From assembly GCA_000002445.1 (NCBI GenBank), contig CP000069.1, forward strand, positions 192,001-256,000: a stretch of DNA of 64,000 nucleotides, in the 5' to 3' direction. The position numbers were made by a program, and so were the translations under genes. Below the pieces are notes generated by a model. That model worked only from the letters and a program-made list of their open reading frames with translations. It was not told the DNA's origin and made no database searches. Positions 15,459-41,600 of the stretch are shown piece by piece (position 1 is the stretch's first letter; the number at the start of each line of letters is the position of its first letter). This stretch comes from Trypanosoma brucei. Its lineage: Eukaryota.

Positions 15459-18400
15459 AAAAGACACCGTTTCTTCCAAAGACTGCGCGGGAGTTGCTCC
15501 TAAATTGCATTTCCTTCTCTCCTCGTAACATTAAGTGGTCGTGTTGTTGTTTTTTCTTCTTTCCTCTCGCGTGTGGAGGCGAGGCTGAAGACGAACTGCG
15601 GCGTCAGACTGCCAAGTGTGAGAAAGAGCGTGAAGTGGTGTGGGGATGATGCCAACGAAGATCTTTTTAATTTTTGGATGTGGGCTTACGTAGTTCGCTG
15701 GTAAATATACTTAAGATCTTTCTTTTTTTTTTTTGTTGTTGTATGTCTTTTTGATTTTGTTGTATTGATTGAATTATTCCCCTTGAGCTTTCTTGTCTTG
15801 TACGATACGTTGGCGAGAAGCTGGTTAAACGAAAACTTTGAAGGAAAAAAATGTGGGATGTGTTTGTGTCTGCTTGTGTGTGTAAACGTAATGGAGGCTT
15901 CCCCCCCCATTAGTGGCATGCATGCATTTCCGATGCCGACATGCGGTTTTCGGTGAGGGAACAATGCGCCTCACCGTATCATGTACCGTGAACTACAAGC
16001 CACAAAAATATGTGCTTGAATAGTAAGTCCTCCCAACTTCATTTCATGACCAGGAAATTAATCATGTCAAGCCATTGAGCAACTTTTTCTCTTCAGTGGT
16101 ATGCCTTTGTTCGTTTTCAAAAAAAAAAAGGAAGAATAAAGAGAAAGGGAGTGGGAAAACTTTTTTTTTTTTGCTACATGTGCCTTTTCTAGTGTGTGCG
16201 AGCGCCCGCTGCGAGGAATTGAGCTTTCTCCTTTCCTTCCTTTTCCTCCTTTCCCCTCTCTATGGATGAATCCAATTTAGGGTCCGCCGCTTTCTTGCTC
16301 GCTCCCGCCGTACGCAAAGGAATTATGCCGTTTACCTCAATCAGTTTTTTAGGGCGGCTTGTGGAAGTGCCTTCATCAGTACCGCTTACACCTTTGTTTC
16401 CCGGGTTAAACACACCTCCCGCGAAAAATAAATGAATAATAAATTCAGTTTATATTATATGTAATTATCCCAAGTGCGGCGGGTGGCTCTGCTGCCTTGA
16501 TGGAGAGCGGGCGGAGGTCCTTGTGAGGGTTTACAGCCGCCCTTTCAGTTTTTCTGTACTAACGTTCCTGCGGTGGAAATCATTCGCATTATCAGAGTAT
16601 TGTACGGTGTCTTAAGTTGATGTTTGCAGTAGCGGACCGGTGGACAAGACGAGCGAAGGTTCACCGCGCAAGGGCGAGAAAAAGCTTTCCCGCACGCTGA
16701 TTACAGCAGAAAACCTCACTTCTCCTCGGTCTACTTTAAAATCAATGTTGTCGACGCTCGGTTATTGTGACAGCGGGATTGCTTTTACAAGCAACACGTT
16801 GTCTTCTTTTTTTGTTTATTTCCTGTTGGGGTCCGTTGGAGTGGCGTTAAAGGCCTTGCTTTGGCGACAGGGCCGCCCAACAGGGTTTGGCTGGGGGCGT
16901 GACATCGCACTGGCGTCCATCACGTCCAGCGGGTTACTGGCGTGGTGAAGTCGCAGCTTTCTTTCAAGTGAGAATCCCCTGCTTGGCGGGAAAAAAATGG
17001 CTCTGCTTCTGATGGGAAAGGAGGAATTTTGTATTCTTTGACTTACTCCTGCGGTGATGTTGTGTTTGTGGTCCGCTTTTCAAGGGTGAGACCTCCGGGT
17101 TCTTAAACGGCACCATCCTCCCCGTTGGTCAGTTCTTTCGCGAAAAGGGTTTGTGTCCGCCGTGTTGGTTGCTGGATCGCCAACCCACAGAAGTTGCCGT
17201 TCCTCCACAGCATAGTTGTGTGAACAATGTTCCCCTTTGAGCAGATTAGCGTCGTCTCCATGCCTTGTTTCCTACTGCACCCGCTGCATTTGCATGCCTC
17301 AGTTGCGCAGTTAAGCATATCTTCATTCCTGTTTTCCGTGAGAGGCGAAGGGTTGCCGTGTCCTCAAGAGAGGTGTCCTTGAGGGTTGCAGTCTTTTACC
17401 GTGCTGGTTAGCTCCACGGCCTCCACCGAAAAGGGGAGAGCCCGAACGCTGGTTTCCCCATTTCCCCGTCTTTTCGATCAAGAACCCCTTGCTTTTAGTA
17501 GGTATTAGATCGGTAACTGGGAGATTGTAGCGGGTGTTCGTGTGTGGGGAGCGTTGCGCACTCGCACGGTTTTAAAATGGTTGTTATGTCAAAGCTGTTA
17601 TTTCCCTTTTGTTCACTATGCCATTTGTTAACCATCTTCCAGTTGTTTGTTATACTCCTATCGATGGATTGTCACTCCTTCAAATATGGTGCTGTAGTTT
17701 GAATACTCTCTTGGTGTGCCGCAAAGTGTGGGATACATAACGTGCCACAAGCTAGCGCTTCCAAGGGGGTTTAAACTCGGGAACTGTGAGTGTGAGTCTC
17801 GAACCAATGCGATGGTTCTGGTCTGCGCTGAAGGACATTTTATAGGGCCCCCGGATCCTCCCTGTGCCCAACTCGGTGATGCTGAGGTCGATGAATTCCT
17901 TCGTTCGCTACGAAACAAAGCATTGGGTTTGGTGGCATTTAGTGCGGTGCCTTCGATGGTGTTGTGCTTTCCTCTCCTGGAATGTGCTGGCTCGGGTTAA
18001 GATTTTAGCGGGTGCGGGGGAATGCGGCCCAACTTTTTTGCGCGAAATCTCTTGCATTGACTTGCCGCGTAACCCATGGTGGTTTCGTCAGCCTGGTAGG
18101 AGCTGAGACAGCAGCATAATGGGTGGATTCTCGTATCCATTCGTGTGGGCATGCTCCCCACTTGCATGGGTTCCATTTTTGAAACATTGGTGCACTGGGG
18201 GTGTGTTCCGTAGGAAGGGCCGCGCGGTTGGGGCTTTAAAAGCACGACTGTAACATCTATATAGTGAAGTGGCGGGTGTACGAGTTGGGAGTGCAACATT
18301 TGAGTGCGGTGTTTGTCCTGCATGCCCCCGACTGCTGGTTTTCAGACTTCTTCGATGCCCGGTGTTTCGTAGCAAAACATACCGCTGCCGGCCTAAATGC

Positions 18401-18639
18401 CGCTGATTCACCACAAAGTGCTTTTCAGTGCCCCCAAACTGGATTGCCAAACTTCTGACAAGTGTATTGTTCCGAGTATGGTGAGCGGACCCCTTCTCTA
18501 TTATCAATTCTCAAAAACTCTTCGGGAGTCAGGGCCCACGGAACCGAGGGGGCGGATGAGGGAGAGGGGGAAACAACAATTCCGCACCGCGAACAGGCAC
18601 CGCTCCCCTGGACCTCTTCCTCAGATGTGAGGTGCAGTC

Positions 18640-18900
18640 AGCCTTTGTTGTCATTGGGGTTAAGCGGAAAGGTGTGTGTCAGTAGGTTGTGAGGTGAAAG
18701 CGTTTTCAGATGCATAGTGAGCTTAATGTCCTTTTCACAGTATATCGTGTCTGATAGGTATCTCTTATTAGTATAGTCGAATACTAGTCAATAGTGCATT
18801 TTGTGCAAAATGTCCATTTTGTGGCAGTGATGGGGTTGCTTTATGCTATTCCGTGTCTTGATGGTCATACATTGAAAATAGGGGTTATCGGGTGAGTACT
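18640..18900 (+). promoter_or_regulatory. Presumptive procyclin (RNA polymerase I) promoter region, unit 1
   Basis: Positional inference. Established knowledge is that the procyclin promoter occupies ~250 bp upstream of the transcription start, which lies roughly 100 nt 5' of the splice acceptor. The poly-pyrimidine tract and AG acceptor lie at 18935-18990, directly before the ATG at 19009. The promoter elements themselves are not recognised from memory, and the coordinates are approximate. Confidence 0.35.
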
Positions 18901-19008
18901 GAGTTTAACATGTTCTCGTGATCGCTGCACGCGCCTTCGAGTTTTTTTTCCTTTTCCCCATTTTTTTCAACTTGAAGACTTCAATTACACCAAAAAGTAA
19001 AATTCACA

Positions 19009-19392
19009 ATGGCACCTCGTTCCCTTTATCTGCTCGCTATTCTTCTGTTCAGCGCGAACCTCTTCTCTGGCGTGGGATTTGCCGCAGCCGCTGAAGGACC
19101 AGAAGACAAGGGTCTTACTAAGGGAGGCAAAGGCGGGAAGGGAACCAAGGTCAGCGACGACGATACCAATGGCACTGACCCTGACCCCGACCCCGAACCT
19201 GAACCTGAACCTGAACCTGAACCTGAACCTGAACCCGAACCCGAACCTGAACCTGAACCGGAACCTGAACCTGAACCCGAACCTGAACCGGAACCCGAAC
19301 CCGAACCTGAACCTGAACCTGGTGCTGCAACGCTGAAGTCTGTTGCGCTTCCGTTCGCAATTGCGGCCGTTGGTCTCGTTGCCGCATTCTAA
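19009..19392 (+). CDS. EP: EP procyclin (N-glycosylated EP1/EP3 class), 3 DP + 21 EP dipeptide repeats
   Basis: 127-aa ORF. It has a signal peptide ([27 protein letters not shown]), an N-glycosylation site (NGT), (DP)3(EP)21 and the GPI signal [23 protein letters not shown]. This is the diagnostic procyclin architecture. Confidence 0.95.
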
Positions 19393-19595
19393 GCTCATGT
19401 AAAGAGAAATCTTTTTGGAGGGTCAAAACTTTTTAACAAGGGTGACCCCAACTGTTTATTTAACCCTTCCTTTGGCGCGATGCGCTCGCTTCATGGTGTT
19501 CCTTTGTGACAGGACACTGACACGCATAATATTTTTTTCAACCCATTTTTTTGAGTTCTATTTTTTGTTTTATGTCTTGGAACCGTCGGCGGTAG

Positions 19596-19621
19596 CACGC
19601 AGCCCTGTAGACTTCTGCGTG
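19596..19621 (+). promoter_or_regulatory. Procyclin 3' UTR conserved stem-loop ('16-mer' element) downstream of a U-rich tract
   Basis: cacgcag-ccctgtagactt-ctgcgtg is a perfect 7-bp inverted repeat flanking a 12-nt loop, ~200 nt after the stop codon. It is preceded by a U-rich block (19525-19580, candidate 26-mer/U-rich element). The same loop sequence with compensatory stem changes occurs in the GPEET 3' UTR (34385-34406). Confidence 0.6.
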
Positions 19622-20370
19622 TGCCTGTCAATGTGTTCCTTGGCTCTTTTCAAACGGCTTCTTTTATCTTACCGTTCATATGGTTTTGTCAAAAATTCAT
19701 CCACTGCATTTGTGGTCCTCTCCTATGTCTCGTTCCTGCAATGGTTGACAGCAACCTCTTCCATTTGTGACTGAACTTTTTTTTTTTCAAACTTTTTGCC
19801 TTGTCCTTTTTTCGTACTGGGAAAATAGTTCCTTCTAAAACCTCAGGCTAGAAATGGGAGACAAATGGACTTTTGTTGACTCAAGCGATTTGTCCCTCGA
19901 TATTTCCGCCATCGCAGCTTCCGTTTGACACCGTGGAGTTGCAACATGGGAAGCAGCGGTTGAAGGAAGCACATTCCTGGTGATGATGCCTTCTTCGCCT
20001 ACGGTGGTGCATCATCATGTTTGTTAATATGTCGGGGAAACTTTAAAGCACCTTGAGGGAGTTCACCGTAACTGTTCAAAATTGAGGCCTGAGCGGTGTT
20101 TTGCCTTTTGACTTGCCTTTATTTAACTGTTCTCGTCAGGGGAGCGATTCAGTTGAGTGAGCTGCTGCCACTTTATCTGTTGGGGAGGAGAGGCTGCGGA
20201 GAGGGTAAGCGCGTTGTTTCCATGAACTTTACGTATTTACTGCACTGCCCTCTGTTTTGGTCCACTTTGTGAAATACTCTGGGACAATCAATGGAGAGTG
20301 TGAGATTTTTTGAAATACTTCTGGAGCATTCACCGGCTCGTCGGTCGTCATATGTTCTCGCAGTGTTTTC

Positions 20371-20508
20371 TCTCCCATATTCTTCGGGGCGGTATTGCAG
20401 TGAAAGTGCCATGCGGGACGCGTGTCAGAGCAGTGTTTGTCTCCCATATTCTTCGGGGCGGTATTGCAGTGAAAGTGCCATGCGGGACGCGTGTCAGAGC
20501 AGTGTTTG
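20371..20508. repeat. 69-bp perfect tandem duplication in the EP-PAG intergenic region (copy 1 20371-20439, copy 2 20440-20508)
   Basis: tctcccatattcttcggggcggtattgcagtgaaagtgccatgcgggacgcgtgtcagagcagtgtttg occurs twice head-to-tail. The same duplication is at 27778-27915 in unit 2, but only a single copy is present in unit 3 (~36483-36551). Confidence 0.9.
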
Positions 20509-21252
20509 ATGTTCCGGAAGTCTTCGGAGTTAGAGGGCAAATGCTCCTCTTCTCCTTTCGTGCGGCGTGATTCTCATACCGAGGCTTCCACTAAGCAGGC
20601 TGCAACTCTTCTGCTGACTTTTTGGTTTATTCTTTTCCCATATTTCAGTGTTGGAGTGTTTCTCTTGCCGCCCTTGGGAATCGGGCACAGTCATATGAAG
20701 GCGCTTGCTTCGGCAGCCAAAGGTGGTTCCGTTTGGTATTTCTTGTGGAGACATTTGTCTTCCTTTCCTTTTCGGCCACCTCTTTTCCCATGGAGAAAGG
20801 CCTCTGGTACTGTCCTGCCCGATGATCTTTGCCCCGTTCGTTCCATCATGAATAATAGTTACAAAAGTGTGTGTCGGTACGGCGGTGGATATTTCCCCAA
20901 TCGCTTTGGTTGCTTTTACTATTTTGTGGGGCGGTTTAAAGTTGGTAACTCAGTGCACTTCCAAAAAAATTGCGACTCGTACATTTGGTTTTATATGGAG
21001 GGTGGAAGAGCCGAAAACGTGTATGTGCTTGCTTGGATGAGTCGGAAAATAAATTCTAGTTTCCGTGTATTTTCCCTTCATTACGTCATATATGGCTTGG
21101 CCTTTAGATTTGTGTAAGGTATGTTTCTTTTCGAAGTTGGTATGCTGGCGGACGTGTTTGTTTAATGTAAATCAGCCAAGGTGTAAGAGTAGCTGTAATG
21201 ATAAGTTTCTGCTTCTCCCTTTTTTACTGATGAATGTAGAAACAAAATCACA

Positions 21253-22626
21253 ATGAGGCACGAATTAGTGTTTACCATTGGGTTGTTTGTGGCTGTTTTA
21301 TCTGATTCTTCTCAGATATTTTTGCCGCACTGGCGCGATTGGATCCAGGTATCTAAAAACGGGAGTATACTTACAACTCTCGTTAGTGAAGTCAACAACC
21401 ACCACAGCATTGGTGAATTCGAGGCACTTTGCAAGATTTACAGAATCACACAAGCGGAGACCCCGAAGCCTTCCTTTAAGAATCGTGAGAAGGAAGCTGA
21501 GATTCTGAAGAAGTTGGAGGAAATGGTCAGTGAAACTGAGGCTGTGGGTGGTGATAAAGGTTCAAGTAAGTTGGGTAAAAGAACGACGGCATATCAGGAG
21601 ATAAAGATACTTTTTGAGAAGGCGAAAAAGCTGAAGGAAGAAATAGAAGTGAATAGGACAAGATCGCTAAATGCAAGTCGTTCTGCTGAGGAAAATATGT
21701 TGAGAGCTGTGTATGGCGACGCTGTGGATGTGGCGAGAAATGAAAATAAAACTCTGGAGGAAGCCATGAGAGGAAACAAATCACTACTGTTCAACAGTGT
21801 TGATCATGCAAATATGAGTTGTGGTTCTTACGGAGACAAACTGGTTGGAAAGACACTGATCAATGACTTTTTCTGCCTATGTGTGGGAGAGGCGACAGAT
21901 TTACAAATAAGAAGCAATAAGTATTATGCACTCGACTTAAACTCAACTAATCACACTGTGTATAATGGGTTTAACTGTCCCTGCAAGGATGAAATAAGGA
22001 GACCTAAACATGGAAGTTGGACTATGATGGCTGATTATTGCCCAAGCAACTATAATACTTGCGACCCTAGAAAGGTAAAATACAACCATACTGAGGCATG
22101 GGATGTGATTAGTAAAGCTTGCGTGTACAAAAATGTTGCATCGAATGTGAAAACTCTGAAGAGTGCACTAGCTCAGTTTGATGCGTTGGTGAATTTAGAG
22201 CAGGATAATTATCAAATGAAGGGTATTCTTGGGTACGCGGATATTTCAGAAAACACAAATCGCATCTGCAACGGTTATACTGCTGGATTCACGTGTGTCA
22301 GTTACAATTACACACTTGAAAATGGTGGAATTCCATGGTACAACCGCCTCACTAACGCCACCAAGGAACTACAAGAAATGGCGAAGTATGCCAAAGAAGC
22401 TGACAGTCATCTTTACGAATTGGAAGAGTACCAACATGAGGCAGAGGAAATATATCTTGAAGTGAAACTTGGTGGTGATGCAGAGCTATGGAAGAGTAGC
22501 CGAGGTAAAGGCGAAGGTGACGGTGAAGGTGATGATACTGATGTAAATAATGATGGGCTCAACTATATAAATATTACAACTGACTTTCTTATATTATTGT
22601 TTTCATCTTTTATTTGTATATCTTAG
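21253..22626 (+). CDS. PAG: Procyclin-associated gene product (PAG family, PAG3-like), secreted/GPI-type cysteine-rich glycoprotein
   Basis: 457-aa ORF directly downstream of the EP gene, preceded by a poly-pyrimidine tract and AG (21190-21250). It has an N-terminal signal peptide (MRHELVFTIGLFVAVLSDSS), many N-glycosylation sequons and paired cysteines, an acidic GEGDGEGDD tail, then a hydrophobic C-terminus (ITTDFLILLFSSFICIS). An identical copy is in unit 2 and a diverged copy in unit 3. The naming rests on the gene's position in the procyclin locus. Confidence 0.75.
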   Translation: MRHELVFTIGLFVAVLSDSSQIFLPHWRDWIQVSKNGSILTTLVSEVNNHHSIGEFEALCKIYRITQAETPKPSFKNREKEAEILKKLEEMVSETEAVGGDKGSSKLGKRTTAYQEIKILFEKAKKLKEEIEVNRTRSLNASRSAEENMLRAVYGDAVDVARNENKTLEEAMRGNKSLLFNSVDHANMSCGSYGDKLVGKTLINDFFCLCVGEATDLQIRSNKYYALDLNSTNHTVYNGFNCPCKDEIRRPKHGSWTMMADYCPSNYNTCDPRKVKYNHTEAWDVISKACVYKNVASNVKTLKSALAQFDALVNLEQDNYQMKGILGYADISENTNRICNGYTAGFTCVSYNYTLENGGIPWYNRLTNATKELQEMAKYAKEADSHLYELEEYQHEAEEIYLEVKLGGDAELWKSSRGKGEGDGEGDDTDVNNDGLNYINITTDFLILLFSSFICIS

Positions 22627-25600
22627 TTTGTGATTAATTTGGTAATTGCTTTGTGTGGTGTCGCTTTTTTTTTTTCTTTGTGGAGGGGAGGAGGAGGGAT
22701 GTTGTATTTGTGTGCAGTTGTTTTCAAATTAATTATAAATTTGGTAACAAAAATTTCTGCAAATGTTGCTTTTGACTGTGTTTGAGCGTGGCTGTTGGGA
22801 CGTTGACGGGGAATCGCCACGGCAGGGTCATTTCCCGAGAGGGTGCCGATACGTTGTGTTACTTTTTCATTTTCACATCGCGCAAGGATATGGGTATGCT
22901 ACTATTAACAAATCATTTAGCTCCTATCTAGTACGCTCCGCTGCGGCAGAAAAATAAGGGGCCACGAGCCAAATTCTATGTGTCTACGAGCACTGTCAGC
23001 CTTCCAAGGACTCTCGGATCTCTATCGCAGCGAGTTTAGGTTAAAAGTGGGATGAAGAACTCCTCCTTCTGCTTGTTCCGGCCGAACATAGAGGCGTGAC
23101 GGCAGCTCCTTCGTTTCCATCCACGGAGGACACAACATTCGCTGAATTATCTCTTAATGGAGCGTTTTTTTGTTTTTAAGTGTAAAATAACTGTCTGGTG
23201 TATATATATATATATATTGACTGAAAGAAGGAGTCGAGAGCGTCTTTTCCGAGTGCACTTTTCTCCGGCGGATCTCCCACTAACCTGTGGCGTAGGGCTA
23301 TGGCTCCCAAAACACGTGTAAACACTACTGTATGATGTGGGTTATCGTGTTCATTGGCGTGGTAGTACTCTTTAATCCAGCGTATTCCATGTTTGATGTC
23401 ATTGTGTATTTAGAAGCCCACTTTGGAGTAGATCCTTATCCCGGCCTCGGAGGGGATACTGCACACAGTTGCAACGCGTTGACGATGGAGCTCAGGGGCG
23501 CTGTTGGTTAGGTTTTCAAGTTTTGGAGTGACCCAATCTGTGTATTTTCTAGAGCTGAACCGTTAAGCTGCTGAGGGATGCATATTTATGCGGTCACTGT
23601 TAACTTCAGATGAGTTGTTCATCTGCTGAAGCCGTTTCCCCGGACGGTGGCTCTTTATCTCCCTATGTGTTATCCTGGCTTCACTTTGTAAGGCCGCTGC
23701 CTTCACTAGGTTTGTTTTCCTGGTGTCTGACCCTTTTCTGTGGAGGTATCCCGCCTTTCAATTTGCTTGCGATGTTGCATTCCCTGAACTGTGGCGGATT
23801 TGATTCTGTAGCCTTTTCCGTTGGGAGAGCCAAACTCTCAGTCATTCTCCAACCCTGTGTTTCACCACTTGTTTTTACTTTGTTTTTATACCTTCGTTTG
23901 ATTCTGTAATTTTCGTTGCGCGTTTAGTCTGCGCCTACTCCGCTCTCACTGTTTATCTTCAGTTACTTGCTCACAGAAAGTCTGAGCAGATTCGTGGCAG
24001 CTTGTTCCCACTTTACGCATTTATCGACGGGCAAATTCTCGTTACCCTGCGAAGGTGCTCTGGGACTTGGTAAGTAATCAGCTTCTTTTGCTGGCACAAC
24101 ATTTCGGTTTGTTTCAGTAGCTTGGTGACGAGACGTTTTATCACCATCTGGGTTTTACTGTTTCTCGCCTGTGTCTACGTGGCCGTTGTTTTGTGGCTTA
24201 ACCGTCCCTCTGGACTGAATGTTTGAAGCTATATTCATGAAGAACTGCGCGAGTTCCACGTATTGGTTCCTTCCTTTTCTGTTCCACTGCGCTCATCAAC
24301 CCCATTCCTTCTCATCCTTGGTGTCCTCGAGTTTTTGGAGGAAGTGCCTGATCGTCTCTCGGTATTCTGTTCTTCCGTTGTTGCGAACCTCCCTTCACTT
24401 CCCTTCCCGACTGTGCACTATTTTTTGTTTTTGCACCACGTAAGTCTGGCTTGTCTGAGGAGTTTCAAATATTACCCTGAACGCCGCCTGCTTTCCGTTG
24501 TTATGTTCCACCTCTTTGTGCCTCCATCCGTAGTTGTTCCTGGGGCGATGACAATTCCAGGATCGTGCTACCGTGTGTGCGTTAGATTACCGCCCCCTGC
24601 ATCAAGTAGGACATACTGAATCCGCGAAGGCTCTCCGGCTTTCGTGAGGTGTTTCTAGCAACTATCACCTTTGTTTCTTCAACTTCTTGATTTATTGTCT
24701 TTTACTCATCTATTATCTCCCTTTTCTTTAGGTCCTGCATGTCAAAAAGTATACTGTCATATTGGGCGGGAAATCATATCATAACTGTGGTATGGTTTTG
24801 AGGGTTGCAGTCTTTTACCGTGCTGGTTAGCTCCACGGCCTCCACCGAAAAGGGGAGAGCCCGAACGCTGGTTTCCCCATTTCCCCGTCTTTTCGATCAA
24901 GAACCCCTTGCTTTTAGTAGGTATTAGATCGGTAACTGGGAGATTGTAGCGGGTGTTCGTGTGTGGGGAGCGTTGCGCACTCGCACGGTTTTAAAATGGT
25001 TGTTATGTCAAAGCTGTTATTTCCCTTTTGTTCACTATGCCATTTGTTAACCATCTTCCAGTTGTTTGTTATACTCCTATCGATGGATTGTCACTCCTTC
25101 AAATATGGTGCTGTAGTTTGAATACTCTCTTGGTGTGCCGCAAAGTGTGGGATACATAACGTGCCACAAGCTAGCGCTTCCAAGGGGGTTTAAACTCGGG
25201 AACTGTGAGTGTGAGTCTCGAACCAATGCGATGGTTCTGGTCTGCGCTGAAGGACATTTTATAGGGCCCCCGGATCCTCCCTGTGCCCAACTCGGTGATG
25301 CTGAGGTCGATGAATTCCTTCGTTCGCTACGAAACAAAGCATTGGGTTTGGTGGCATTTAGTGCGGTGCCTTCGATGGTGTTGTGCTTTCCTCTCCTGGA
25401 ATGTGCTGGCTCGGGTTAAGATTTTAGCGGGTGCGGGGGAATGCGGCCCAACTTTTTTGCGCGAAATCTCTTGCATTGACTTGCCGCGTAACCCATGGTG
25501 GTTTCGTCAGCCTGGTAGGAGCTGAGACAGCAGCATAATGGGTGGATTCTCGTATCCATTCGTGTGGGCATGCTCCCCACTTGCATGGGTTCCATTTTTG

Positions 25601-26059
25601 AAACATTGGTGCACTGGGGGTGTGTTCCGTAGGAAGGGCCGCGCGGTTGGGGCTTTAAAAGCACGACTGTAACATCTATATAGTGAAGTGGCGGGTGTAC
25701 GAGTTGGGAGTGCAACATTTGAGTGCGGTGTTTGTCCTGCATGCCCCCGACTGCTGGTTTTCAGACTTCTTCGATGCCCGGTGTTTCGTAGCAAAACATA
25801 CCGCTGCCGGCCTAAATGCCGCTGATTCACCACAAAGTGCTTTTCAGTGCCCCCAAACTGGATTGCCAAACTTCTGACAAGTGTATTGTTCCGAGTATGG
25901 TGAGCGAATCCCTTCTCTATTATCAATTCTCGAAAACTCTTCGGGAGTCAGGGCCCACGGAACCGAGGGGGCGGATGAGGGAGAGGGGGAAACAACAATT
26001 CCGCACCGCGAACAGGCACCGCTCCCCTGGACCTCTTCCTCAGATGTGAGGTGCAGTCA

Positions 26060-26320
26060 GCCTTTGTTGTCATTGGGGTTAAGCGGAAAGGTGTGTGTCA
26101 GTAGGTTGTGAGGTGAAAGCGTTTTCAGATGCATAGTGAGCTTAATGTCCTTTTCACAGTATATCGTGTCTGATAGGTATCTCTTATTAGTATAGTCGAA
26201 TACTAGTCAATAGTGCATTTTGTGCAAAATGTCCATTTTGTGGCAGTGATGGGGTTGCTTTATGCTATTCCGTGTCTTGATGGTCATACATTGAAAATAG
26301 GGGTTATCGGGTGAGTACTG
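26060..26320 (+). promoter_or_regulatory. Presumptive procyclin promoter region, unit 2 copy
   Basis: Sequence identical to 18640-18900, shifted by 7419 bp. Same positional inference. Confidence 0.3.
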
Positions 26321-26427
26321 AGTTTAACATGTTCTCGTGATCGCTGCACGCGCCTTCGAGTTTTTTTTCCTTTTCCCCATTTTTTTCAACTTGAAGACTT
26401 CAATTACACCAAAAAGTAAAATTCACA

Positions 26428-26799: not shown

Positions 26800-27002
26800 G
26801 CTCATGTAAAGAGAAATCTTTTTGGAGGGTCAAAACTTTTTAACAAGGGTGACCCCAACTGTTTATTTAACCCTTCCTTTGGCGCGATGCGCTCGCTTCA
26901 TGGCGTTCCTTTGTGACAGGACACTGACACGCATAATATTTTTTTCAACCCATTTTTTTGAGTTCTATTTTTTGTTTTATGTCTTGGAACCGTCGGCGGT
27001 AG

Positions 27003-33000: not shown

Positions 33001-33469
33001 ATTTTTGAAACATTGGTGCACTGGGGGTGTGTTCCGTAGGAAGGGCCGCGCGGTTGGGGCTTTAAAAGCACGACTGTAACATCTATATAGTGAAGTGGCG
33101 GGTGTACGAGTTGGGAGTGCAACATTTGAGTGCGGTGTTTGTCCTGCATGCCCCCGACTGCTGGTTTTCAGACTTCTTCGATGCCCGGTGTTTCGTAGCA
33201 AAACATACCGCTGCCGGCCTAAATGCCGCTGATTCACCACAAAGTGCTTTTCAGTGCCCCCAAACTGGATTGCCAAACTTCTGACAAGTGTATTGTTCCG
33301 AGTATGGTGAGCGGACCCCTTCTCTATTATCAATTCTCAAAAACTCTTCGGGAGTCAGGGCCCACGGAACCGAGGGGGCGGATGAGGGAGAGGGGGAAAC
33401 AACAATTCCGCACCGCGAACAGGCACCGCTCCCCTGGACCTCTTCCTCAGATGTGAGGTGCAGTCAGCC

Positions 33470-33730
33470 TTTGTTGTCATTGGGGTTAAGCGGAAAGGTG
33501 TGTGTCAGTAGGTTGTGAGGTGAAAGCGTTTTCAGATGCATAGTGAGCTTAATGTCCTTTTCACAGTATATCGTGTCTGATAGGTATCTCTTATTAGTAT
33601 AGTCGAATACTAGTCAATAGTGCATTTTGTGCAAAATGTCCATTTTGTGGCAGTGATGGGGTTGCTTTATGCTATTCCGTGTCTCTGGGTGGGCGTGCAT
33701 TGAAAATAGGGGTTATCGGGTGAGTACTGA
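33470..33730 (+). promoter_or_regulatory. Presumptive procyclin promoter region upstream of GPEET (variant copy)
   Basis: Same upstream sequence as units 1 and 2, except for a block substitution at ~33680-33696 (tctgggtgggcgtg versus ttgatggtcatac). Confidence 0.35.
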
Positions 33731-33836
33731 GTTTAACATGTTCTCGTGATCGCTGCACGCGCCTTCGAGTTTTTTTTCCTTTTCCCCATTTTTTTCAACT
33801 TGAAGACTTCAATTACACCAAAAAGTAAAATTCACA

Positions 33837-34181
33837 ATGGCACCTCGTTCCCTTTATCTGCTCGCTATTCTTCTGTTCAGCGCGAACGTCTTCGCTGGCG
33901 TGGGATTTGCCGCAGCCGCTGATGAGTCGGCTAGCAACGTTATCGTGAAGGGAGGCAAAGGAAAGGAGAGGGAGGACGGCCCTGAGGAGCCGGAAGAAAC
34001 CGGACCAGAAGAGACCGGACCAGAAGAAACCGGACCAGAAGAGACGGGGCCGGAGGAGACGGGGCCGGAAGAGACGGGACCAGAGGAAACTGAACCTGAA
34101 CCTGAACCTGGTGCTGCAACGCTGAAATCTGTTGCACTTCCGATTGCAGTCGCGGCTGCTGCTCTCGTTGCCGCATTCTAA
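33837..34181 (+). CDS. GPEET: GPEET procyclin
   Basis: 114-aa ORF. It has the same signal peptide family ([27 protein letters not shown]), then EEPEET followed by six GPEET pentapeptide repeats, then EPEPEPG and the GPI signal [22 protein letters not shown]. There is no N-glycosylation site, as expected for GPEET. Confidence 0.95.
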
Positions 34182-34384
34182 GCGGATGCAAGCGTGTGAA
34201 GCGCCTCGGAGGAACGAAACCCCTTTGAAAAGGTGGCTTTCGTTTATATATTCTCCATCTGGTGCATCGTGTTTATTTCGTATTATTCCCTGTCAAAAGC
34301 TGCGGATATTCATTTAATATTCTTTTCGTTATATTTTTTTAGTTCTATCCTTTATTTTATCCGTTTTAATCGTCTTCTGAGACC

Positions 34385-34406
34385 CACAGCCCTGTAGATT
34401 TCTGTG
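34385..34406 (+). promoter_or_regulatory. GPEET 3' UTR stem-loop (16-mer-like element)
   Basis: cacag-ccctgtagattt-ctgtg has a loop almost identical to the EP element, with the stem maintained by different bases. Confidence 0.55.
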
Positions 34407-35114
34407 ATGTTTCGGTTGCGTATTCCATAATTTTAAGCGTTTCACTTCTATTTTTTTTCATTCCTTTGAATTTGGATCTTAAAATTATTATTGGTGCCTT
34501 GTGTTATTGTGCGTGCTGCGTGTGAATTTGGTGCTCTGCCTTTTAATTTGTTGGATGAGCTATTTCATTAATTTTTTTGCCTTCTCTTCTTTTGGGTTCG
34601 AATAATAGTTCCTTCTAAACCTTCAGGCCAGAAATGGGAAACAAGTGTTAGACCGGCCAACTTGGGCGAAGGGGTCTGCATGTTGCTTTATTTCATTGGT
34701 GGTTTTATGTGCAGTGTTTCCCTGCTTCAGATGGGCCCCGCAGCTGAAGTTGTTTCGCTGCCCTGCCCCCCACTGCTGCGTTGCTGCTGGAGAAACGATG
34801 TTGGAGGTTGACGGGTGTGTGCTTTTGAAGACTTTGTATGAATATGGAAGGAAGCTCGCAGCGGTTACTACAGGCAGTTAAGGGCTGAGTGCTGTGCCTT
34901 TTCTATTGCCTCTCCCCCTCTTGAGCTATTCTTGTCGGGAGAGTGATTTATATATCCGAGTTTCGGTTAATTGTCCCTTAGGGATGAAAGGCACCTCAGA
35001 GATGAGAGGGCAATGCAACGCTGGTTATCCCAGTTGATGTGCGCATTCATATATACCATTTCCCCATTTTTTTCAACTTGAAGACTTCAATTACACCAAA
35101 AAGTAAAATTCACA

Positions 35115-35504
35115 ATGGCACCTCGTTCCCTTTATCTGCTCGCTGTTCTTCTGTTCAGCGCGAACCTCTTCGCTGGCGTGGGATTTGCCGCAGCCGCTGA
35201 AGGACCAGAAGACAAGGGTCTTACTAAGGGAGGCAAAGGCAAAGGCGGGAAGGGAACCAAGGTCAGCGACGACGATACCAATGGCACTGACCCTGAACCC
35301 GAACCTGAACCTGAACCTGAACCTGAACCCGAGCCAGAGCCAGAACCTGAACCGGAACCCGAACCCGAACCTGAACCTGAACCTGAACCCGAACCTGAAC
35401 CCGAGCCAGAGCCAGAACCAGAACCTGAACCTGGTGCTGCAACGCTGAAGTCTGTTGCACTTCCGTTTGCAATCGCGGCCGTTGGTCTCGTTGCCGCATT
35501 CTAA
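35115..35504 (+). CDS. EP: EP procyclin (EP3 position, downstream of GPEET), 1 DP + 23 EP repeats
   Basis: 129-aa ORF with GKGKGGKG (one extra GK), an NGT sequon, DP(EP)23 using GAG/CCA codon variants, and a GPI signal. Only the last ~55 bp before the ATG (poly-pyrimidine tract and splice-acceptor region) match the other procyclin upstream regions. The 930-bp GPEET-EP spacer (34182-35114) is otherwise unique. Confidence 0.95.
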
Positions 35505-35707
35505 GCTCATGTAAAGAGAAATCTTTTTGGAGGGTCAAAACTTTTTAACAAGGGTGACCCCAACTGTTTATTTAACCCTTCCTTTGGCGCGATGCGCTCG
35601 CTTCATGGCGTTCCTTTGTGACAGGACACTGACACGCATAATATTTTTTTCAACCCATTTTTTTGAGTTCTATTTTTTGTTTTATGTCTTGGAACCGTCG
35701 GCGGTAG

Positions 35708-35733
35708 CACGCAGCCCTGTAGACTTCTGCGTG
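35708..35733 (+). promoter_or_regulatory. Procyclin 3' UTR stem-loop, unit 3 EP copy
   Basis: Identical cacgcagccctgtagacttctgcgtg hairpin. Confidence 0.6.
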
Positions 35734-37295
35734 TGCCTGTCAATGTGTTCCTTGGCTCTTTTCAAACGGCTTCTTTTATCTTACCGTTCATATGGTTTTG
35801 TCAAAAATTCATTCACTGCATTTGTGGTCCTCTCCTATGTCTCGTTCCTGCAATGGTTGACAGCAACCTCTTCCATTTGTGACTGAACTTTTTTTTTTTC
35901 AAACTTTTTGCCTTGTCCTTTTTTCGTACTGGGAAAATAGTTCCTTCTAAAACCTCAGGCTAGAAATGGGAGACAAATGGACTTTTGTTGACTCAAGCGA
36001 TTTGTCCCTCGATATTTCCGCCATCGCAGCTTCCGTTTGACACCGTGGAGTTGCAACATGGGAAGCAGCGGTTGAAGGAAGCACATTCCTGGTGATGATT
36101 CCTTCCTCGCCTACGGTGGTGCATCATCATGTTTGTTAATATGTCGGGGAAACTTTAAAGCACCTTGAGGGAGTTCACCGTAACTGTTCAAAATTGAGGC
36201 CTGAGTGGTGTTTTGCCTTTTGACTTGCCTTTATTTAACTGTTCTCGTCAGGGGAGCGATTCAGTTGAGTGAGCTGCTGCCACTTTATCTGTTGGGGAGG
36301 AGAGGCTGTGGAGAGGGTAAGCGCGTTGTTTCCATGAACTTTACGTATTTACTGCACTGCCCTCTGTTTTGGTCCACTTTGTGAAATACTCTGGGACAAT
36401 CAATGGAGAGTGTGAGATTTTTTGAAATACTTCTGGAGCATTCACCGGCTCGTCGGTCGTCATATGTTCTCGCAGTGTTTTCTCTCCCATATTCTTCGGG
36501 GCGGTATTGCAGTGAAAGTGCCATGCGGGACGCGTGTCAGAGCAGTGTTTGATGTTCCGGAAGTCTTCGGAGTTAGAGGGCAAATGCTCCTCTTCTCCTT
36601 TCGTGCGGCTTGATTCTCATACCGAGGCTTCCACTAAGCAGGCTGCAACTCTTCTGCTGACTTTTTGGTTTATTCTTTTCCCATATTTCAGTGTTGGAGT
36701 GTTTCTCTTGCCGCCCTTGGGAATCGGGCACAGTCATATGAAGGCGCTTGCTTCGGCAGCCAAAGGTGGTTCCGTTTGGTATTTCTTGTGGAGACATTTG
36801 TCTTCCTTTCCTTTTCGGCCACCTCTTTTCCCATGGAGAAAGGCCTCTGGTACTGTCCTGCCCGATGATCTTTGCCCCGTTCGTTCCATCATGAATAATA
36901 GTTACAAAAGTGTGTGTCGGTACGGCGGTGGATATTTCCCCAATCGCTTTGGTTGCTTTTACTATTTTGCGGGGCGGTTTAAAGTTGGTAACTCAGTGCA
37001 CTTCCAAAAAAATTGCGACTCGTACATTTGGTTTTATATGGAGGGTGGAAGAGCCGAAAACGTGTATGTGCTTGCTTGGATGAGTCGGAAAATAAATTCT
37101 AGTTTCCGTGTATTTTCCGTTCATTACGTCATATATGGCTTGGCCTTTAGATTTGTGTAAGGTATGTTTCTTTTCGAAGTTGGTATGCTGGCGGACGTGT
37201 TTGTTTAATGTAAATCAGCCAAGGTGTAAGAGTAGCTGTAATGATAAGTTTCTGCTTCTCCCTTTTTTACTGATGAATGTAGAAACAAAATCACA

Positions 37296-38660
37296 ATGAT
37301 GCACGAATTAGTGTTTATCATTGGGTTGTTTGTGGCTGTTTTATCTGTTTCTTCTCAGAGCGATTTGTCGAGACACAATTGGAGCATAATATCTAGAAAC
37401 CGGAGTGTGTTTACAAAACTCGTTAGTGAGCTCAACAACCACCACAGCATTGGTGAATTCGAGGCACTTTGCAAGATTTACAGAATCACACAAGCGGAGA
37501 CACCGAAGTCTTCCTTTAAGAATCGTGAGAAGGAAGCTGAGATTCTGAAGAAGTTGGAGGAGATGGTCAGTGAAACTGAGGCTGTGGGTGGTGATAAAGG
37601 TTCAAGTAAGTTGGGTAAAAGAACGACGGCATATCAGGAGATAAAGATACTTCTTGAGAAGGCGAAAAAGCTGAAGGAAGAAATAGAAGTAAATAGGACA
37701 AGATCGCTAAATGCAAGTCGTTCTGCTGAGGAAAATATGTTGAGAGCTGTGTATGGCGACGCTGTGGATGTGGCGAGAAATGAAAATAAAACTCTGGAGG
37801 AAGCCATGAGAGGAAACAAATCACTACTGTTCAACAGTGTTGATCATGCAAATATGAGTTGTGGTTCTTACGGAGACAAACTGGTTGGAAAGACACTGAT
37901 CAATGACTTTTTCTGCCTATGTGTGGGAGAGGCTATAGATGTACAAATAAGAAGCAATATGTTTTCGGGACTCGAGTTAAGCTCGAATTACCACCCTGTG
38001 TATAATGGGTTTAACTGTCCCTGCAAGGATGAAATAAGGAGACCCCAAAATGGAAGTTGGACTATGATGGCTGATTATTGCCCAAGCAACTATAATACTT
38101 GCGACCCTAGAAAGGTAAAATACAACCATACTGAGGCATGGGATGTGATTAGTAAAGCTTGCGTGTACAAAAATGTTGCATCGAATGTGAAAACTCTGAA
38201 GAGTGCACTAGCTCAGTTTGATGCGTTGGTGAATTTAGAGCAGGATAATTATCAAATGAAGGGTATTCTTGGGTACGCGGATATTTCAGAAAACACAAAT
38301 CGCACATGCAACGGTCATACTGCTGGATTCACGTGTGTCAGTTACAATTACACACTTGAAAATGGTGGAATTCCATGGTACAACCGCCTCACTAACGCCA
38401 CCAAGGAACTACAAGAAATGGCGAAGTATGCCAAAGAGGCTGACAGTCATCTTCATGAATTGGAAGAGTACCAACATGAGGCAGAGGAAATATATCTTGA
38501 AGTGAAACTTGGTGGTGATGCAGAGCTATGGAAGAGTAGCCGAGGTAAGGGTTACAGTGGAGGTGATGATACTGATGTAAATAATGATGGGCTCAACTAT
38601 ATAAATATTACAACTGACTTTCTTATATTATTGTTTTCATCTTTTATTTGTATATCTTAG
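37296..38660 (+). CDS. PAG: Procyclin-associated gene product (PAG family), diverged/mosaic paralogue
   Basis: 454-aa ORF collinear with the 457-aa PAGs. It is near-identical over most of its length, but has clustered substitutions at residues ~2-45 (MMHELVFIIGLFVAVLSVSSQSDLSRHNWSIISRNRSVFTKLVSEL) and ~213-240 (AIDVQIRSNMFSGLELSSNYHPVY), and GKGYSGGDD replaces GKGEGDGEGDD. Confidence 0.75.
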   Translation: MMHELVFIIGLFVAVLSVSSQSDLSRHNWSIISRNRSVFTKLVSELNNHHSIGEFEALCKIYRITQAETPKSSFKNREKEAEILKKLEEMVSETEAVGGDKGSSKLGKRTTAYQEIKILLEKAKKLKEEIEVNRTRSLNASRSAEENMLRAVYGDAVDVARNENKTLEEAMRGNKSLLFNSVDHANMSCGSYGDKLVGKTLINDFFCLCVGEAIDVQIRSNMFSGLELSSNYHPVYNGFNCPCKDEIRRPQNGSWTMMADYCPSNYNTCDPRKVKYNHTEAWDVISKACVYKNVASNVKTLKSALAQFDALVNLEQDNYQMKGILGYADISENTNRTCNGHTAGFTCVSYNYTLENGGIPWYNRLTNATKELQEMAKYAKEADSHLHELEEYQHEAEEIYLEVKLGGDAELWKSSRGKGYSGGDDTDVNNDGLNYINITTDFLILLFSSFICIS

Positions 38661-41600
38661 TTTGTGATTAATTTGGTAATTGCTTTGTGTGGTGTCGCTT
38701 TTTTTTTTTCTTTGTGGAGGGGAGGAGGAGGGATGTTGTATTTGTGTGCAGTTGTTTTCAAATTAATTATAAATTTGGTAACAAAAATTTCTGCAAATGT
38801 TGCTTTTGACTGTGTTTGAGCGTGGCTGTTGGGACGTTGACGGGGAATCGCCACGGCAGGGTCATTTCCCGAGAGGGTGCCGATACGTTGTGTTACTTTT
38901 TCATTTTCACATCGCGCAAGGATATGGGTATGCTACTATTAACAAATCATTTAGCTCCTATCTAGTACGCTCCGCTGCGGCAGAAAAATAAGGGGCCACG
39001 AGCCAAATTCTATGTGTCTACGAGCACTGTCAGCCTTCCAAGGACTCTCGGATCTCTATCGCAGCGAGTTTAGGTTAAAAGTGGGGTGAAGAACTCCTCC
39101 TTCTGCTTGTTCCGACCGAACATAGAGGCGTGACGGCAGCTCCTTCGTTTCCATCCACGGAGGACACAACATTCGCTGAATTATCTCTTAATGGAGCGTT
39201 TTTTTGTTTTTAAGTGTAAAATAACTGTTTGGTGTATATATATATATATATATATATATATTGACTGAAAGAAGGAGTCGAGAGCGTCTTTTCCGAGTGC
39301 ACTTTTCTCCGGCGGATCTCCCACTAACCTGTGCCGTAGGGCTATGGCTCCCAAAACACGTGTAAACACTACTGTATGATGTGGGTTATCGTGTTCATTG
39401 GCGTGGTAGTACTCTTTAATCCAGCGTATTCCATGTTTGATGTCATTGTGTATTTAGAAGCCCACTTTGGAGTAGATCCTTATCCCGGCCTCGGAGGGGA
39501 TACTGCACACAGTTGCAACGCGTTGACGATGGAGCTCTGGGGCGCTGTTGGTTAGGTTTTCAAGTTTTGGAGTGACCCAATCTGTGTATTTTCTAGAGCT
39601 GAACCGTTAAGCTGCTGAGGGATGCATATTTATGCGGTCACTGTTAACTTCAAATGAGTTGTTCATCTGCTGAAGCCGTTTCCCCGGACGGTGGCTCTTT
39701 ATCTCCCTATGTGTTATCCTGGCTTCACTTTGTAAGGCCACTGCCTTCACTAGGTTTGTTTTCCTGGTGTCTGACCCTTTTCTGTGGAGGTATCCCGCCT
39801 TTCAATTTGCTTGCGATGTTGCATTCCCTGAACTGTGGCGGATTTGATTCTGTAGCCTTTTCCGTTGGGAGAGCCAAGCTCTCAGTCATTCTCCAACCCT
39901 GTGTTTCACCACTTGTTTTTACTTTGTTTTTATACCTTCGTTTGATTCTGTAATTTTCGTTGCGCGTTTAGTCTGCGCCTACTCCGCTCTCACTGTTTAT
40001 CTTCAGTTACTTGCTCACAGAAAGTCTGAGCAGATTCGTGGCAGCTTGTTCCCACTTTACGCATTTATCGACGGGCAAATTCTCGTTACCCTGCGAAGGT
40101 GCTCTGGGACTTGGTAAGTAATCAGCTTCTTTTGCTGGCACAACATTTCGGTTTGTTTCAGTAGCTTGGTGACGAGACGTTTTATCACCATCTGGGTTTT
40201 ACTGTTTCTCGCCTGTGTCTACGTGGCCGTTGTTTTGTGGCTTAACCGTCCCTCTGGACTGAATGTTTGAAGCTATATTCATGAAGAACTGCGCGAGTTC
40301 CACGTATTGGTTCCTTCCTTTTCTGTTCCACTGCGCTCATCAACCCCATTCCTTCTCATCCTTGGTGTCCTCGAGTTTTTGGAGGAAGTGCCTGATCGTC
40401 TCTCGGTATTCTGTTCTTCCGTTGTTGCGAACCTCCCTTCACTTCCCTTCCCGACTGTGCACTATTTTTTGTTTTTGCACCACGTAAGTCTGGCTTGTCT
40501 GAGGAGTTTCAAATATTACCCTGAACGCCGCCTGCTTTCCGTTGTTATGTTCCACCTCTTTGTGCCTCCATCCGTAGTTGTTCCTGGGGCGATGACAATT
40601 CCAGGATCGTGCTACCGTGTGTGCGTTAGATTACCGCCCCCTGCATCAAGTAGGACATACTGAATCCGCGAAGGCTCTCCGGCTTTCGTGAGGTGTTTCT
40701 AGCAACTATCACCTTTGTTTCTTCAACTTCTTGATTTATTGTCTTTTACTCATCTATTATCTCCCTTTTCTTCAGGTCCTGCATGTTAAAAAGTATACTG
40801 TCATATTGGGCGGGAAATCATATCATAACTGTGGTATGGTTTTGAGGGTTGCAGTCTTTTACCGTGCTGGTGGCGGCTTTGCCGTCAGAATTCTTGCCGC
40901 ATACTTTGAGGTTGTATGTGCTATTCATGAATTTACGATATTCTTTTGCTATATCTTCTGAGCCAGCAGCGGCTTTGCCCGACGGAGCACAACAGCAGTC
41001 ATTTTCATTCAGCCTTTCCGCAACTGCCCTCCTCGCATATCATACTCACCGTCCACACAACATAACTTCCAATTTTATTGAAAAAGAAATTACACAACAG
41101 ATCTTGCTTGACATTTCCCCCCATATGCTGTGTCGTGTTTTACTTGGTCCTTAACCTCTGCCGCATCATTTTCTTTCTGCATCTATGTCTGACGTGCCTT
41201 TCTGCCATGCAAATGTTCAGTCATGCTCCGCGCTTACATTGCTCGTCGACCTTCGCCATGTCGCCATGTCAGCGTTGTATGCTCCTCGGTCTCCTATTTG
41301 AAACTTTGTGATATCCATCGCTGCCTCTTGTTTCGTCGGAAGTCAGGGATATATTTCACGTTCCTTCACCGCCTTGTCAGACCACGCAAGCACGTCCTGT
41401 ATGTTGCTCCTGAAGGTTGACCACGCCCTCTTTGGTAAGCCCCACCGTATTTCTCATTGCTTCGATGGTTATTTTGTAGTAATTTGTTCCCGTATCATCT
41501 CTCTGCCTCCCGTATGGGTCGTCACAAAATCCCTTCCGCATTTGGATGTTAGCGTGTTCGGCGGCGTATTCCTCTGACCTGACATTTTCCCCCGCTGTCT

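Follow-up and report, generated by a model that had tools for sequence, protein, structure and literature searches.

The triplication of EP3, PAG3, and GRESAG2 in Trypanosoma brucei TREU927 has already been annotated and published (Carnes 2015, PMC4288722). It affects the chromosome 6 locus for procyclins, which form the surface coat of the insect stage. According to the accessible part of that paper, the locus Tb927.6.450-.540 is composed of three EP3/PAG3/GRESAG2 units, with GPEET present only before the last one. The array described here is the same object and, as far as that text describes it, does not differ from it structurally. It is a known, published feature of the reference genome, which a first-pass annotation of the DNA had treated as an open finding. 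The 30-bp repeat at the unit junctions, the loss of GPEET inside a 145-bp block, and the private 11-nt promoter variant of the first two units come from the present analysis; the accessible text of PMC4288722 mentions none of the three.

In gene order, flanks, and promoter sequence, the third TREU927 unit agrees with the canonical single GPEET/PAG3 site (Pro C / PARP A) of strains 427, AnTat1.1/EATRO1125, DAL972, and T. b. equiperdum, whereas TREU927 contains two more units, without GPEET, upstream of the canonical one. Alpha-amanitin-resistant (Pol I) transcription of the locus, active in procyclic forms, is known from the literature on other strains. The polymorphic EP/PAG1 and EP/PAG2 loci on chromosome 10 have also been reshaped by recombination of homologous PAG or procyclin segments, and they vary between homologues and strains. 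However, the PAG1-PAG2 fusion allele of chromosome 10 is the result of a deletion or fusion in one unit, whereas on chromosome 6 of TREU927 a whole promoter-bearing unit is multiplied. Tandem rRNA arrays are likewise formed of head-to-tail units with a Pol I promoter in each, and the procyclin promoter is described as resembling the rRNA promoter in its architecture (PMC6562600). In contrast to the rRNA arrays, the TREU927 array has only three units, encodes mRNAs that are processed by trans-splicing, and has not been homogenised to identity between units 1 and 2 and unit 3. The mapped terminator apparently lies outside the TREU927 repeat, whereas rRNA arrays have one in each spacer.

Organization of the array

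Self-BLAST and alignment of the window, which is the whole 64,000-nucleotide stretch of DNA analysed, identify three plus-strand units between positions 17379 and 40871. The window belongs to chromosome 6 of T. brucei brucei TREU927, as demonstrated by proteins that match Tb927.6.440 (HpHbR), GPEET2, PAG3, GRESAG2, and CPC exactly. The units follow each other head to tail in the same orientation, as in a tandem duplication. In unit 1 (17379..24797, 7419 bp), the upstream region and promoter are followed by EP3, PAG3, GRESAG2.1, and a tail of 2171 bp. Unit 2 (24798..32204, 7407 bp) contains a 30-mer, EP3, PAG3, and GRESAG2.1. Unit 3 (32205..40871), which measures 8667 bp when the 30-mer at its end is counted, represents the canonical GPEET/PAG3 unit, in which GPEET is carried by an extra 1.28-kb segment. 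The order of procyclin genes along the array is EP / EP / GPEET-EP. Units 1 and 2 are 99.8% identical in the alignment and differ in 14 SNPs and one 12-nt indel inside the EP repeat (19219-19230). Chance cannot be the origin of a 7.4-kb repeat with this identity. The first-pass annotation had described three tandem procyclin units, two of them about 99.8% identical, with the same gene order and the unit lengths of 7419 and 7407 bp, all of which is correct, and it had placed the array at 17378-40873, at most 2 bp away from the true edges.

The EP3 coding sequence of unit 1 (19009..19392, plus strand) encodes a protein of 127 amino acids with 24 E/D-P dipeptides, one N-glycosylation motif, and a Pfam Trypan_PARP match (E=8e-71). 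The EP3 genes of unit 2 (26428-26799) and unit 3 (35115..35504), both on the plus strand, encode 123 and 129 amino acids, respectively. GPEET2 of unit 3 (33837..34181, plus strand, 114 amino acids) has six GPEET repeats and is an exact match to XP_845174.1. All four procyclin open reading frames score above the Trypan_PARP cut-off (136-240 bits compared with 100) and include a signal peptide, an acidic EP or GPEET repeat, and a GPI-anchor signal. Isoforms were typed using published oligonucleotides for the EP3 open reading frame, EP3 3' UTR, and GPEET open reading frame (PMC1277927). Both EP3 oligonucleotides match exactly at each of the three EP genes, which are therefore all of the EP3 type. 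The GPEET oligonucleotide has a single match, to the only GPEET copy in the window, and no match was obtained with the EP1 or EP2 oligonucleotides.

In every unit the procyclin gene or genes are followed on the same strand by PAG3 and GRESAG2.1, which is the organization of a GPEET/PAG3 expression site. PAG3 is positioned at 20509..21117 in unit 1 (202 amino acids; exact match to XP_845169.1, 'procyclin associated gene 3'), at 27916-28524 in unit 2 (exact match to annotated TREU927 PAG3), and at 36552..37160 in unit 3 (202 amino acids; exact match to XP_845176.1). GRESAG2.1 of unit 1 (21253..22626, 457 amino acids) matches Pfam VSG_B and is an exact match to XP_845170.1/XP_845173.1, 'GRESAG2, putative'. 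The copy in unit 2 (28660-30033) is an exact match to annotated TREU927 GRESAG2, and that in unit 3 (37296..38660, 454 amino acids) to XP_845177.1. The two identical 457-residue GRESAG2 copies correspond to two separate TREU927 accessions, XP_845170.1 and XP_845173.1. The units had previously been labelled procyclin-PAG units; their identity as procyclin units is correct, but the 457- or 454-residue reading frame evidently meant by 'PAG' carries the annotation GRESAG2 and a Pfam VSG_B match, and PAG3 is the 202-residue reading frame that precedes it. The open reading frames of EP3, PAG3, and GRESAG2.1 are all intact in units 1 and 2. The array provides a threefold dosage of EP3, PAG3, and GRESAG2.1 per chromosome, a single GPEET, and three promoter-homologous regions.

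Differences of units 1 and 2 from unit 3

The upstream regions hardly differ from unit to unit or from strain to strain, and a promoter-homologous region, recognised from sequence homology, is present in all three units. One difference is an 11-nt patch in the core promoter, TGATGGTCATA, positioned at plus-strand coordinates 18859..18869 in unit 1 and 26278-26288 in unit 2, and private to these two units in the alignment. Its counterpart in unit 3, CTGGGTGGGCGTG (33685-33697, plus strand), is the version common to unit 3, DAL972, equiperdum, and the guide RNAs directed at the EP1 promoter of Lister 427 (PMC13317214). The patch differs from unit 3 by five substitutions and a 2-nt deletion within a segment of 11-13 nt. 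Unit 3 has one mismatch in 39 nt to the Lister 427 guides, a comparison of homology rather than of function.

Because of the private variant in units 1 and 2, equal activity of the three promoters cannot be assumed. The additional units may be weak or silent passengers that add little expression, if the change in their core promoter impairs initiation by Pol I. The changes cluster in 11-13 nt of a sequence targeted by dCas9 guides as 'EP1 promoter', and the alternative version is the same in unit 3, DAL972, equiperdum, and Lister 427 EP1. However, the remaining promoter region is identical between the units, and the EP3, PAG3, and GRESAG2.1 reading frames of units 1 and 2 are undamaged. Weak or silent additional units are rather unlikely. 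The variant core promoter is a natural mutant that could be used to probe the function of the Pol I promoter.

GPEET and EP3 share a block of 145 bp (18950..19094, plus strand), delimited by BLAST overlaps and alignment, that includes the splice-acceptor region, 5' UTR, and signal peptide. GPEET was probably removed from units 1 and 2 by recombination within this block. Recombination in the conserved stretch has been seen experimentally (PMC2132531). In unit 1, the PAG3 5' UTR ends in a 69-bp tandem duplication of 2.1 copies (20360..20508, plus strand; Tandem Repeats Finder), which is also present in unit 2 (27767-27915, plus strand). The duplication is restricted to units 1 and 2, and the alignment contains a gap at this position in unit 3, DAL972, and equiperdum. 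In the N-terminal stretch of GRESAG2 that was compared, unit 3 is identical to DAL972 and equiperdum.

Direct repeat at the junctions and origin of the array

The sequence TTGAGGGTTGCAGTCTTTTACCGTGCTGGT is a 30-bp direct repeat that occurs exactly four times in the window, on the plus strand at the array's left edge (17379..17408), the junction of units 1 and 2 (24798-24827), the junction of units 2 and 3 (32205-32234), and the right edge (40842..40871). No homology around the 30-mer extends past the 30 bp themselves. T. b. gambiense DAL972 contains one unit, as does a chromosome-scale assembly of T. b. equiperdum (chromosome CM010677.1). Both are collinear with the window minus units 1 and 2, although the DAL972 assembly was scaffolded on TREU927 and could hide a collapsed repeat. 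The 30-mer is present exactly twice in each of these genomes, at positions 13138 and 21757 of the merged DAL972 locus and at 8370 and 16952 in equiperdum, and in both it brackets the single unit. These related genomes have the unduplicated arrangement. The single-copy state is bracketed by the direct repeat, and one copy of the repeat at every TREU927 junction indicates unequal recombination.

Local alignment of the unit ends did not identify terminal inverted repeats or element termini inside the flanking 30-mers. The score of inverted unit ends was 8.5, compared with 8.3 +/- 1.1 for shuffled sequences, and a transposon-like mobile cassette was rejected.

The region is most likely the published triplicated GPEET/PAG3 expression site on chromosome 6 of TREU927, derived from one Pol I unit by unequal recombination, a reading to which a probability of about 85% can be assigned. 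The ancestral state, still present in DAL972 and equiperdum, would be a single Pol I unit with the order promoter-GPEET-EP3-PAG3-GRESAG2.1, positioned between the haptoglobin-haemoglobin receptor gene HpHbR and Tb927.6.550 and bracketed by the exact 30-bp direct repeat. In the TREU927 lineage, the two 30-bp repeats would have recombined unequally to give a tandem duplicate. The upstream copy would then have lost GPEET via the 145-bp block, bringing EP3 into position immediately after the promoter, and the same copy would have gained the core-promoter variant, the 69-bp duplication of the PAG3 leader, and the GRESAG2 patches. Finally, a recent unequal crossover of misaligned units would have doubled the derived copy into units 1 and 2. 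We infer this order because units 1 and 2 share private characters, whereas the N-terminal stretch of GRESAG2 in unit 3 does not differ from that in DAL972 and equiperdum.

The suggestion of the first-pass annotation that the copy number could differ between strains is borne out. DAL972 and equiperdum have one unit, AnTat1.1 has single copies according to the accessible text of PMC4288722, which cites Southern blots, and PAG3 and GRESAG2 are single-copy in the genome assembly of EATRO1125 (PMC8483307). It is conceivable, though rather unlikely, that the chromosome 6 site is a cassette whose conserved, exact 30-bp boundary repeat allows the whole Pol I unit to expand and contract recurrently in natural populations, and that copy number and promoter version tune the early procyclic EP3:GPEET ratio or add silent copies, contributing to strain differences in tsetse infection. 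The flanking 30-bp repeat offers a simple mechanism. SalI sites at 16751 and 41246 bracket the array, and the three-unit fragment is 24.5 kb long; junction PCR and the SalI/BglII fragments (24.5/25.4 kb) can be used as diagnostics of copy number in field isolates. Procyclin biology as currently understood is unchanged by these results.

Copy number in the reference assembly

How many copies the organism has, and whether one or both homologues have the array, is judged from the reference assembly together with published work. The true number of units per TREU927 chromosome might be lower, such as an EP3-only unit and then the GPEET unit, if units 1 and 2 were alleles of the same unit set in tandem by the assembler. 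At 0.16-0.19%, units 1 and 2 differ about as much as alleles do in TREU927, and they could therefore be two alleles in tandem; a gap of only 14 SNPs and a 12-nt indel is compatible with allelic variation. Near-identical 7.4-kb repeats are hard for Sanger-era assembly. The SNPs form a mosaic, in which unit 3 agrees with unit 1 at eight of the differing sites and with unit 2 at six, and which fits alleles or gene conversion. However, the record contains the junction sequence of unit tail, 30-mer, and unit head, and reads or clones must therefore back one tandem junction or more. Furthermore, the triplication is long-standing in the finished reference and, according to the accessible text of PMC4288722, re-mapped Illumina reads of TREU927 were used to show it; the same text gives a coverage of the locus in T. 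evansi that is reduced relative to TREU927. Structural characters separate units 1 and 2 from unit 3, and the units are therefore more than plain copies of a single sequence. An open reading frame of 47 amino acids that spans the junction has no match in public assemblies and is uninformative about false duplication. The specific 30-bp-repeat junction and the private changes that distinguish units 1 and 2 from unit 3 weaken the concern about an artefact, and tandem placement of alleles is very unlikely.

Reads from EP3, PAG3, and GRESAG2 map to multiple positions in the TREU927 reference. Without the use of unit-specific SNPs, expression, ChIP, and copy-number values for Tb927.6.450-.540 are therefore unreliable. 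Strains with one unit, such as 427, EATRO1125, gambiense, and evansi, will show apparent 'reduced coverage' when mapped to TREU927.

Transcription and flanks of the array

Read-through of Pol I between the units is structurally plausible, judging from their arrangement. The three units could form one read-through Pol I system, in which polymerases from unit 1 continue through units 2 and 3 because the terminator is outside the repeat, and upstream promoters feed, as the first-pass annotation had suggested, or occlude the downstream ones. All units have the same orientation. Terminator elements have been placed approximately 2-3 kb past GRESAG2.1 (accessible text of PMC2731899, citing Berberof 1996), which corresponds to approximately 40.66-41.66 kb in unit 3, where the repeat ends at 40871; the internal units continue for just 2171 bp after GRESAG2.1. 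However, these coordinates were carried over from another strain. Moreover, downstream transcription goes up when PAG1, PAG2, or PAG3 is deleted, and strong attenuation of Pol I elongation is seen in run-on experiments (PMC2731899). Because of attenuation within the PAGs, few polymerases should reach the end of a unit. A single read-through system is possible but less likely than not. The unique region downstream of the array (40872..42299) may hold most of the Pol I terminator, as placed by transfer from another strain in the accessible text. The region includes Tb927.6.550 (41742-42299, plus strand, exact match).

The array is positioned between the transcription unit of HpHbR and a convergent minus-strand unit. 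The upstream plus-strand genes are LRRP, GRESAG4, and HpHbR, and the downstream minus-strand genes include CPC, CAF1, and others. HpHbR (Tb927.6.440; 14247..15458, plus strand; Pfam HpHbR E=1.8e-101; exact match to XP_845167.1) is the final gene of the upstream plus-strand Pol II unit and ties the locus to chromosome 6. Among the annotated genes of the opposing minus-strand unit, that for the cathepsin B-like cysteine peptidase C (CPC; 46072..47094, minus strand; Pfam Peptidase_C1; exact match to XP_845179.1) is the nearest, and it marks the convergent strand-switch.

Organization of the procyclin array

Three head-to-tail procyclin units were found in the window by direct-repeat search, self-BLAST, and three-way alignment: U1 (17379-24797, 7419 bp), U2 (24798-32204, 7407 bp), and U3 (32205-40871, 8667 bp). 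The first-pass annotation, in which a model described three tandem procyclin-PAG copies at 17378-40873 from the sequence alone, is correct in both coordinates and description. U1 and U2, which it regarded as nearly identical, differ by 14 single-base substitutions and by an indel of 12 nt within the EP repeat (19219-19230), corresponding to 99.8% identity. U3 contains an additional 1.28 kb with GPEET. The gene order in each unit is EP3-PAG3-GRESAG2.1. The "PAG" label was evidently meant for the large ORF, which is GRESAG2; PAG3 is present as the preceding 202-aa ORF. The interpretation of the array was largely sound, and the feature itself was already known.

Exact-sequence matches assigned the window to chromosome 6 of T. 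brucei brucei TREU927 and identified GPEET2 (XP_845174), three PAG3 proteins (XP_845169, XP_845172, and XP_845176), two identical GRESAG2 proteins of 457 aa (XP_845170 and XP_845173), and a 454-aa GRESAG2 (XP_845177). The haptoglobin-hemoglobin receptor gene HpHbR (Tb927.6.440, 14247-15458), identified by an exact match to TREU927 chromosome 6 and by the Pfam domain HpHbR, precedes the array, and an adenylate cyclase (GRESAG4) and an LRR protein are encoded farther upstream. Tb927.6.550 (41742-42299, plus strand) and cysteine peptidase C (46072-47094, minus strand) were also matched exactly. Pfam assigned Trypan_PARP to the four procyclin ORFs and VSG_B to the 457-aa and 454-aa ORFs. Isoform-specific oligonucleotides from PMC1277927 showed that the three EP genes are of the EP3 type in both ORF and 3' UTR. 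These genes contain 24, 22, and 24 EP-repeat dipeptides; the GPEET oligonucleotide has a single match in the window. A homologue search of the protein collection with the EP protein returned only GPEET-type relatives, and an Rfam scan of the window gave zero hits.

The three-unit array is an annotated and published feature of TREU927, since it is described in PMC4288722, PMC8483307, and the gene lists of RNA-seq papers, in which the EP genes are Tb927.6.450, Tb927.6.480, and Tb927.6.520, and GPEET is Tb927.6.510. The present analysis adds a 30-bp substrate for recombination, also conserved in strains with one unit, the breakpoint of GPEET loss, and a promoter variant and other derived characters private to U1 and U2.

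Copy number and the 30-bp repeat at unit boundaries

The copy number of the unit differs among strains, as the first-pass annotation had considered possible. The locus of T. b. gambiense DAL972 was merged from overlapping segments L001 and L003, and that of T. b. equiperdum from L004 and L002 (chromosome-scale record CM010677.1). From GRESAG4/HpHbR through the promoter, both loci align collinearly with the window; the alignment then skips to U3 and extends as far as the cysteine peptidase C gene (CPC). Therefore, each of these genomes has one GPEET-EP3-PAG3-GRESAG2 unit, compared to three in TREU927. Variation has been considered before: according to Carnes et al. (PMC4288722), copy numbers may vary, and Southern analysis is cited for single copies in AnTat1.1. 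GRESAG2 and PAG3 are single-copy in the EATRO1125 assembly (Naguleswaran et al., PMC8483307).

The difference between U1 and U2 of only ~0.2% could indicate that they are two alleles set in tandem. However, the tandem junction sequence exists in the finished reference, and U1 and U2 are structurally distinct from U3. Furthermore, in an independent read-mapping figure in PMC4288722, the coverage of the locus is lower in T. evansi than in TREU927. These three points favour a real array, and the arrangement of two alleles in tandem is unlikely. The SalI sites at 16751 and 41246 enclose a computed fragment of 24.5 kb with three units; it would shrink to 17.1 kb with two units and to 9.7 kb with a single unit. 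The BglII sites at 15715 and 41100 enclose 25.4 kb in the three-unit arrangement, and HindIII, with one site in each unit, would yield bands of 7.4 kb (22116-29523) and 8.6 kb (29523-38156). The 47-aa ORF spanning the junction had no match in an exact look-up in public assemblies. Logan contigs with the U2-type PAG3 have lengths of 1.9-3.7 kb, originate from another strain, and do not bear on the copy number.

An exact 30-bp direct repeat, TTGAGGGTTGCAGTCTTTTACCGTGCTGGT, is positioned at the left edge of the array (17379), at the two unit junctions (24798 and 32205), and at the right edge (40842). The same 30-mer occurs exactly twice in DAL972 and in T. b. equiperdum, on either side of the unit. 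The similarity of the sequences around the repeat copies does not extend past 30 bp. A transposon-like origin is not supported, because an inverted-repeat signal is absent from the unit ends. Judged from the sequence, the array bears the hallmark of unequal homologous recombination between short direct repeats on either side of a unit, because the 30-mer marks the edges and junctions and flanks the single units without wider homology or inverted repeats.

The Pol I unit, single-copy in DAL972 and T. b. equiperdum, is bracketed by the exact repeat in three Trypanozoon genomes (17379-17408 and 40842-40871 in the window). The repeat could be a footprint of the insertion of the unit at this synteny break.

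Proposed loss of GPEET and characters private to U1 and U2

U1 and U2 match the region upstream of GPEET as far as position 19094, and match EP3 from position 18950 on, as determined by BLAST and alignment. The 145-bp overlap is a block common to GPEET and EP3 that includes the splice acceptor, 5' UTR, and signal peptide. Because the two matches overlap in this shared block, U1 and U2 are best described as U3-like units that would have lost GPEET by recombination inside it. Recombination through this conserved stretch was seen in transfectants (Ruepp et al. 1997, PMC2132531).

Additional characters are common to U1 and U2 only. A 69-bp tandem duplication (20360-20508 and 27767-27915; 2.1 copies, 97% matches) directly precedes the PAG3 start codon. 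Both units share a deletion of 6 nt within the part of EP3 encoding the N-terminal domain, and patches in the N-terminal half of GRESAG2; in the first patch window, U3 is identical to DAL972 and T. b. equiperdum. If the promoter patch, the EP repeats with the EP3 3' region, and GRESAG2 are set aside, each 400-bp window contains 0-4 differences between U1 and U3, or ~1% at most.

We infer the following order of events. The unit would first have been duplicated at the 30-mer, the upstream copy would then have diverged and lost GPEET, and a recent second duplication of the GPEET-less copy would have generated U1 and U2.

The 14 substitutions between U1 and U2 (18488-23494) form a mosaic relative to U3, which is identical to U1 at eight positions and to U2 at six, in alternating blocks. 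The mosaic is compatible with ongoing gene conversion between the units.

Promoter variant and transcription termination

In the 450 bp preceding the first procyclin ATG, U1 and U2 do not differ from each other, and U3, DAL972, and T. b. equiperdum are nearly identical to them apart from one clustered patch. The patch reads TGATGGTCATA in U1 and U2 (18859-18869 and 26278-26288), and CTGGGTGGGCGTG in U3 (33685-33697), DAL972, T. b. equiperdum, and the Lister 427 EP1-promoter guide RNAs (PMC13317214). The variant of U1 and U2 comprises five substitutions and a 2-nt deletion in the core promoter. Because of this patch, the three start regions, which had been proposed to feed one another, are not equivalent at the sequence level. 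The origin of the patch by gene conversion from the EP1 promoter on chromosome 10 was rejected, since the Lister 427 EP1-promoter guides carry the U3 version.

Terminator elements are located ~2-3 kb downstream of GRESAG2.1, according to PMC2731899. Projected onto U3, this interval spans ~40.66-41.66 kb; position 40871 is the end of the repeat. The internal units retain 2171 bp after GRESAG2.1. Most of the terminator is probably missing from U1 and U2, and Pol I read-through from one unit into the next would therefore be structurally possible. Attenuation inside PAG3 should keep the read-through flux low.

Tb927.6.550, a T. brucei-specific hypothetical gene of 185 aa on the plus strand, is positioned directly beyond the array, in the expected region of the Pol I terminator. 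A close paralogue of this gene is located on a different T. b. equiperdum chromosome (RHW72755.1).

Patchwork structure of GRESAG2.1

GRESAG2.1 (21291-22473) diverges in a very patchy manner. In the central part, all three TREU927 copies differ by 12-16% from DAL972 and T. b. equiperdum, and the N-terminal part differs by ~7% between U1/U2 and U3. The patchiness is suggestive of segmental gene conversion with ESAG2-family members as donors. The 457-aa and 454-aa proteins differ at 42 positions; when 15 (GR)ESAG2 homologues were compared at these positions, none stood out as the donor.

In five Logan contigs from another T. brucei sample set (ERR7929156-ERR7929164; L005-L009), GRESAG2.1 is split into ORFs of 194 and 251 aa. 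Each of the five contigs stops at a position 92 bp upstream of the PAG3 start codon. In length, the only property compared, the 251-aa ORF equals the original "GRESAG 2.1" entry Q03849.
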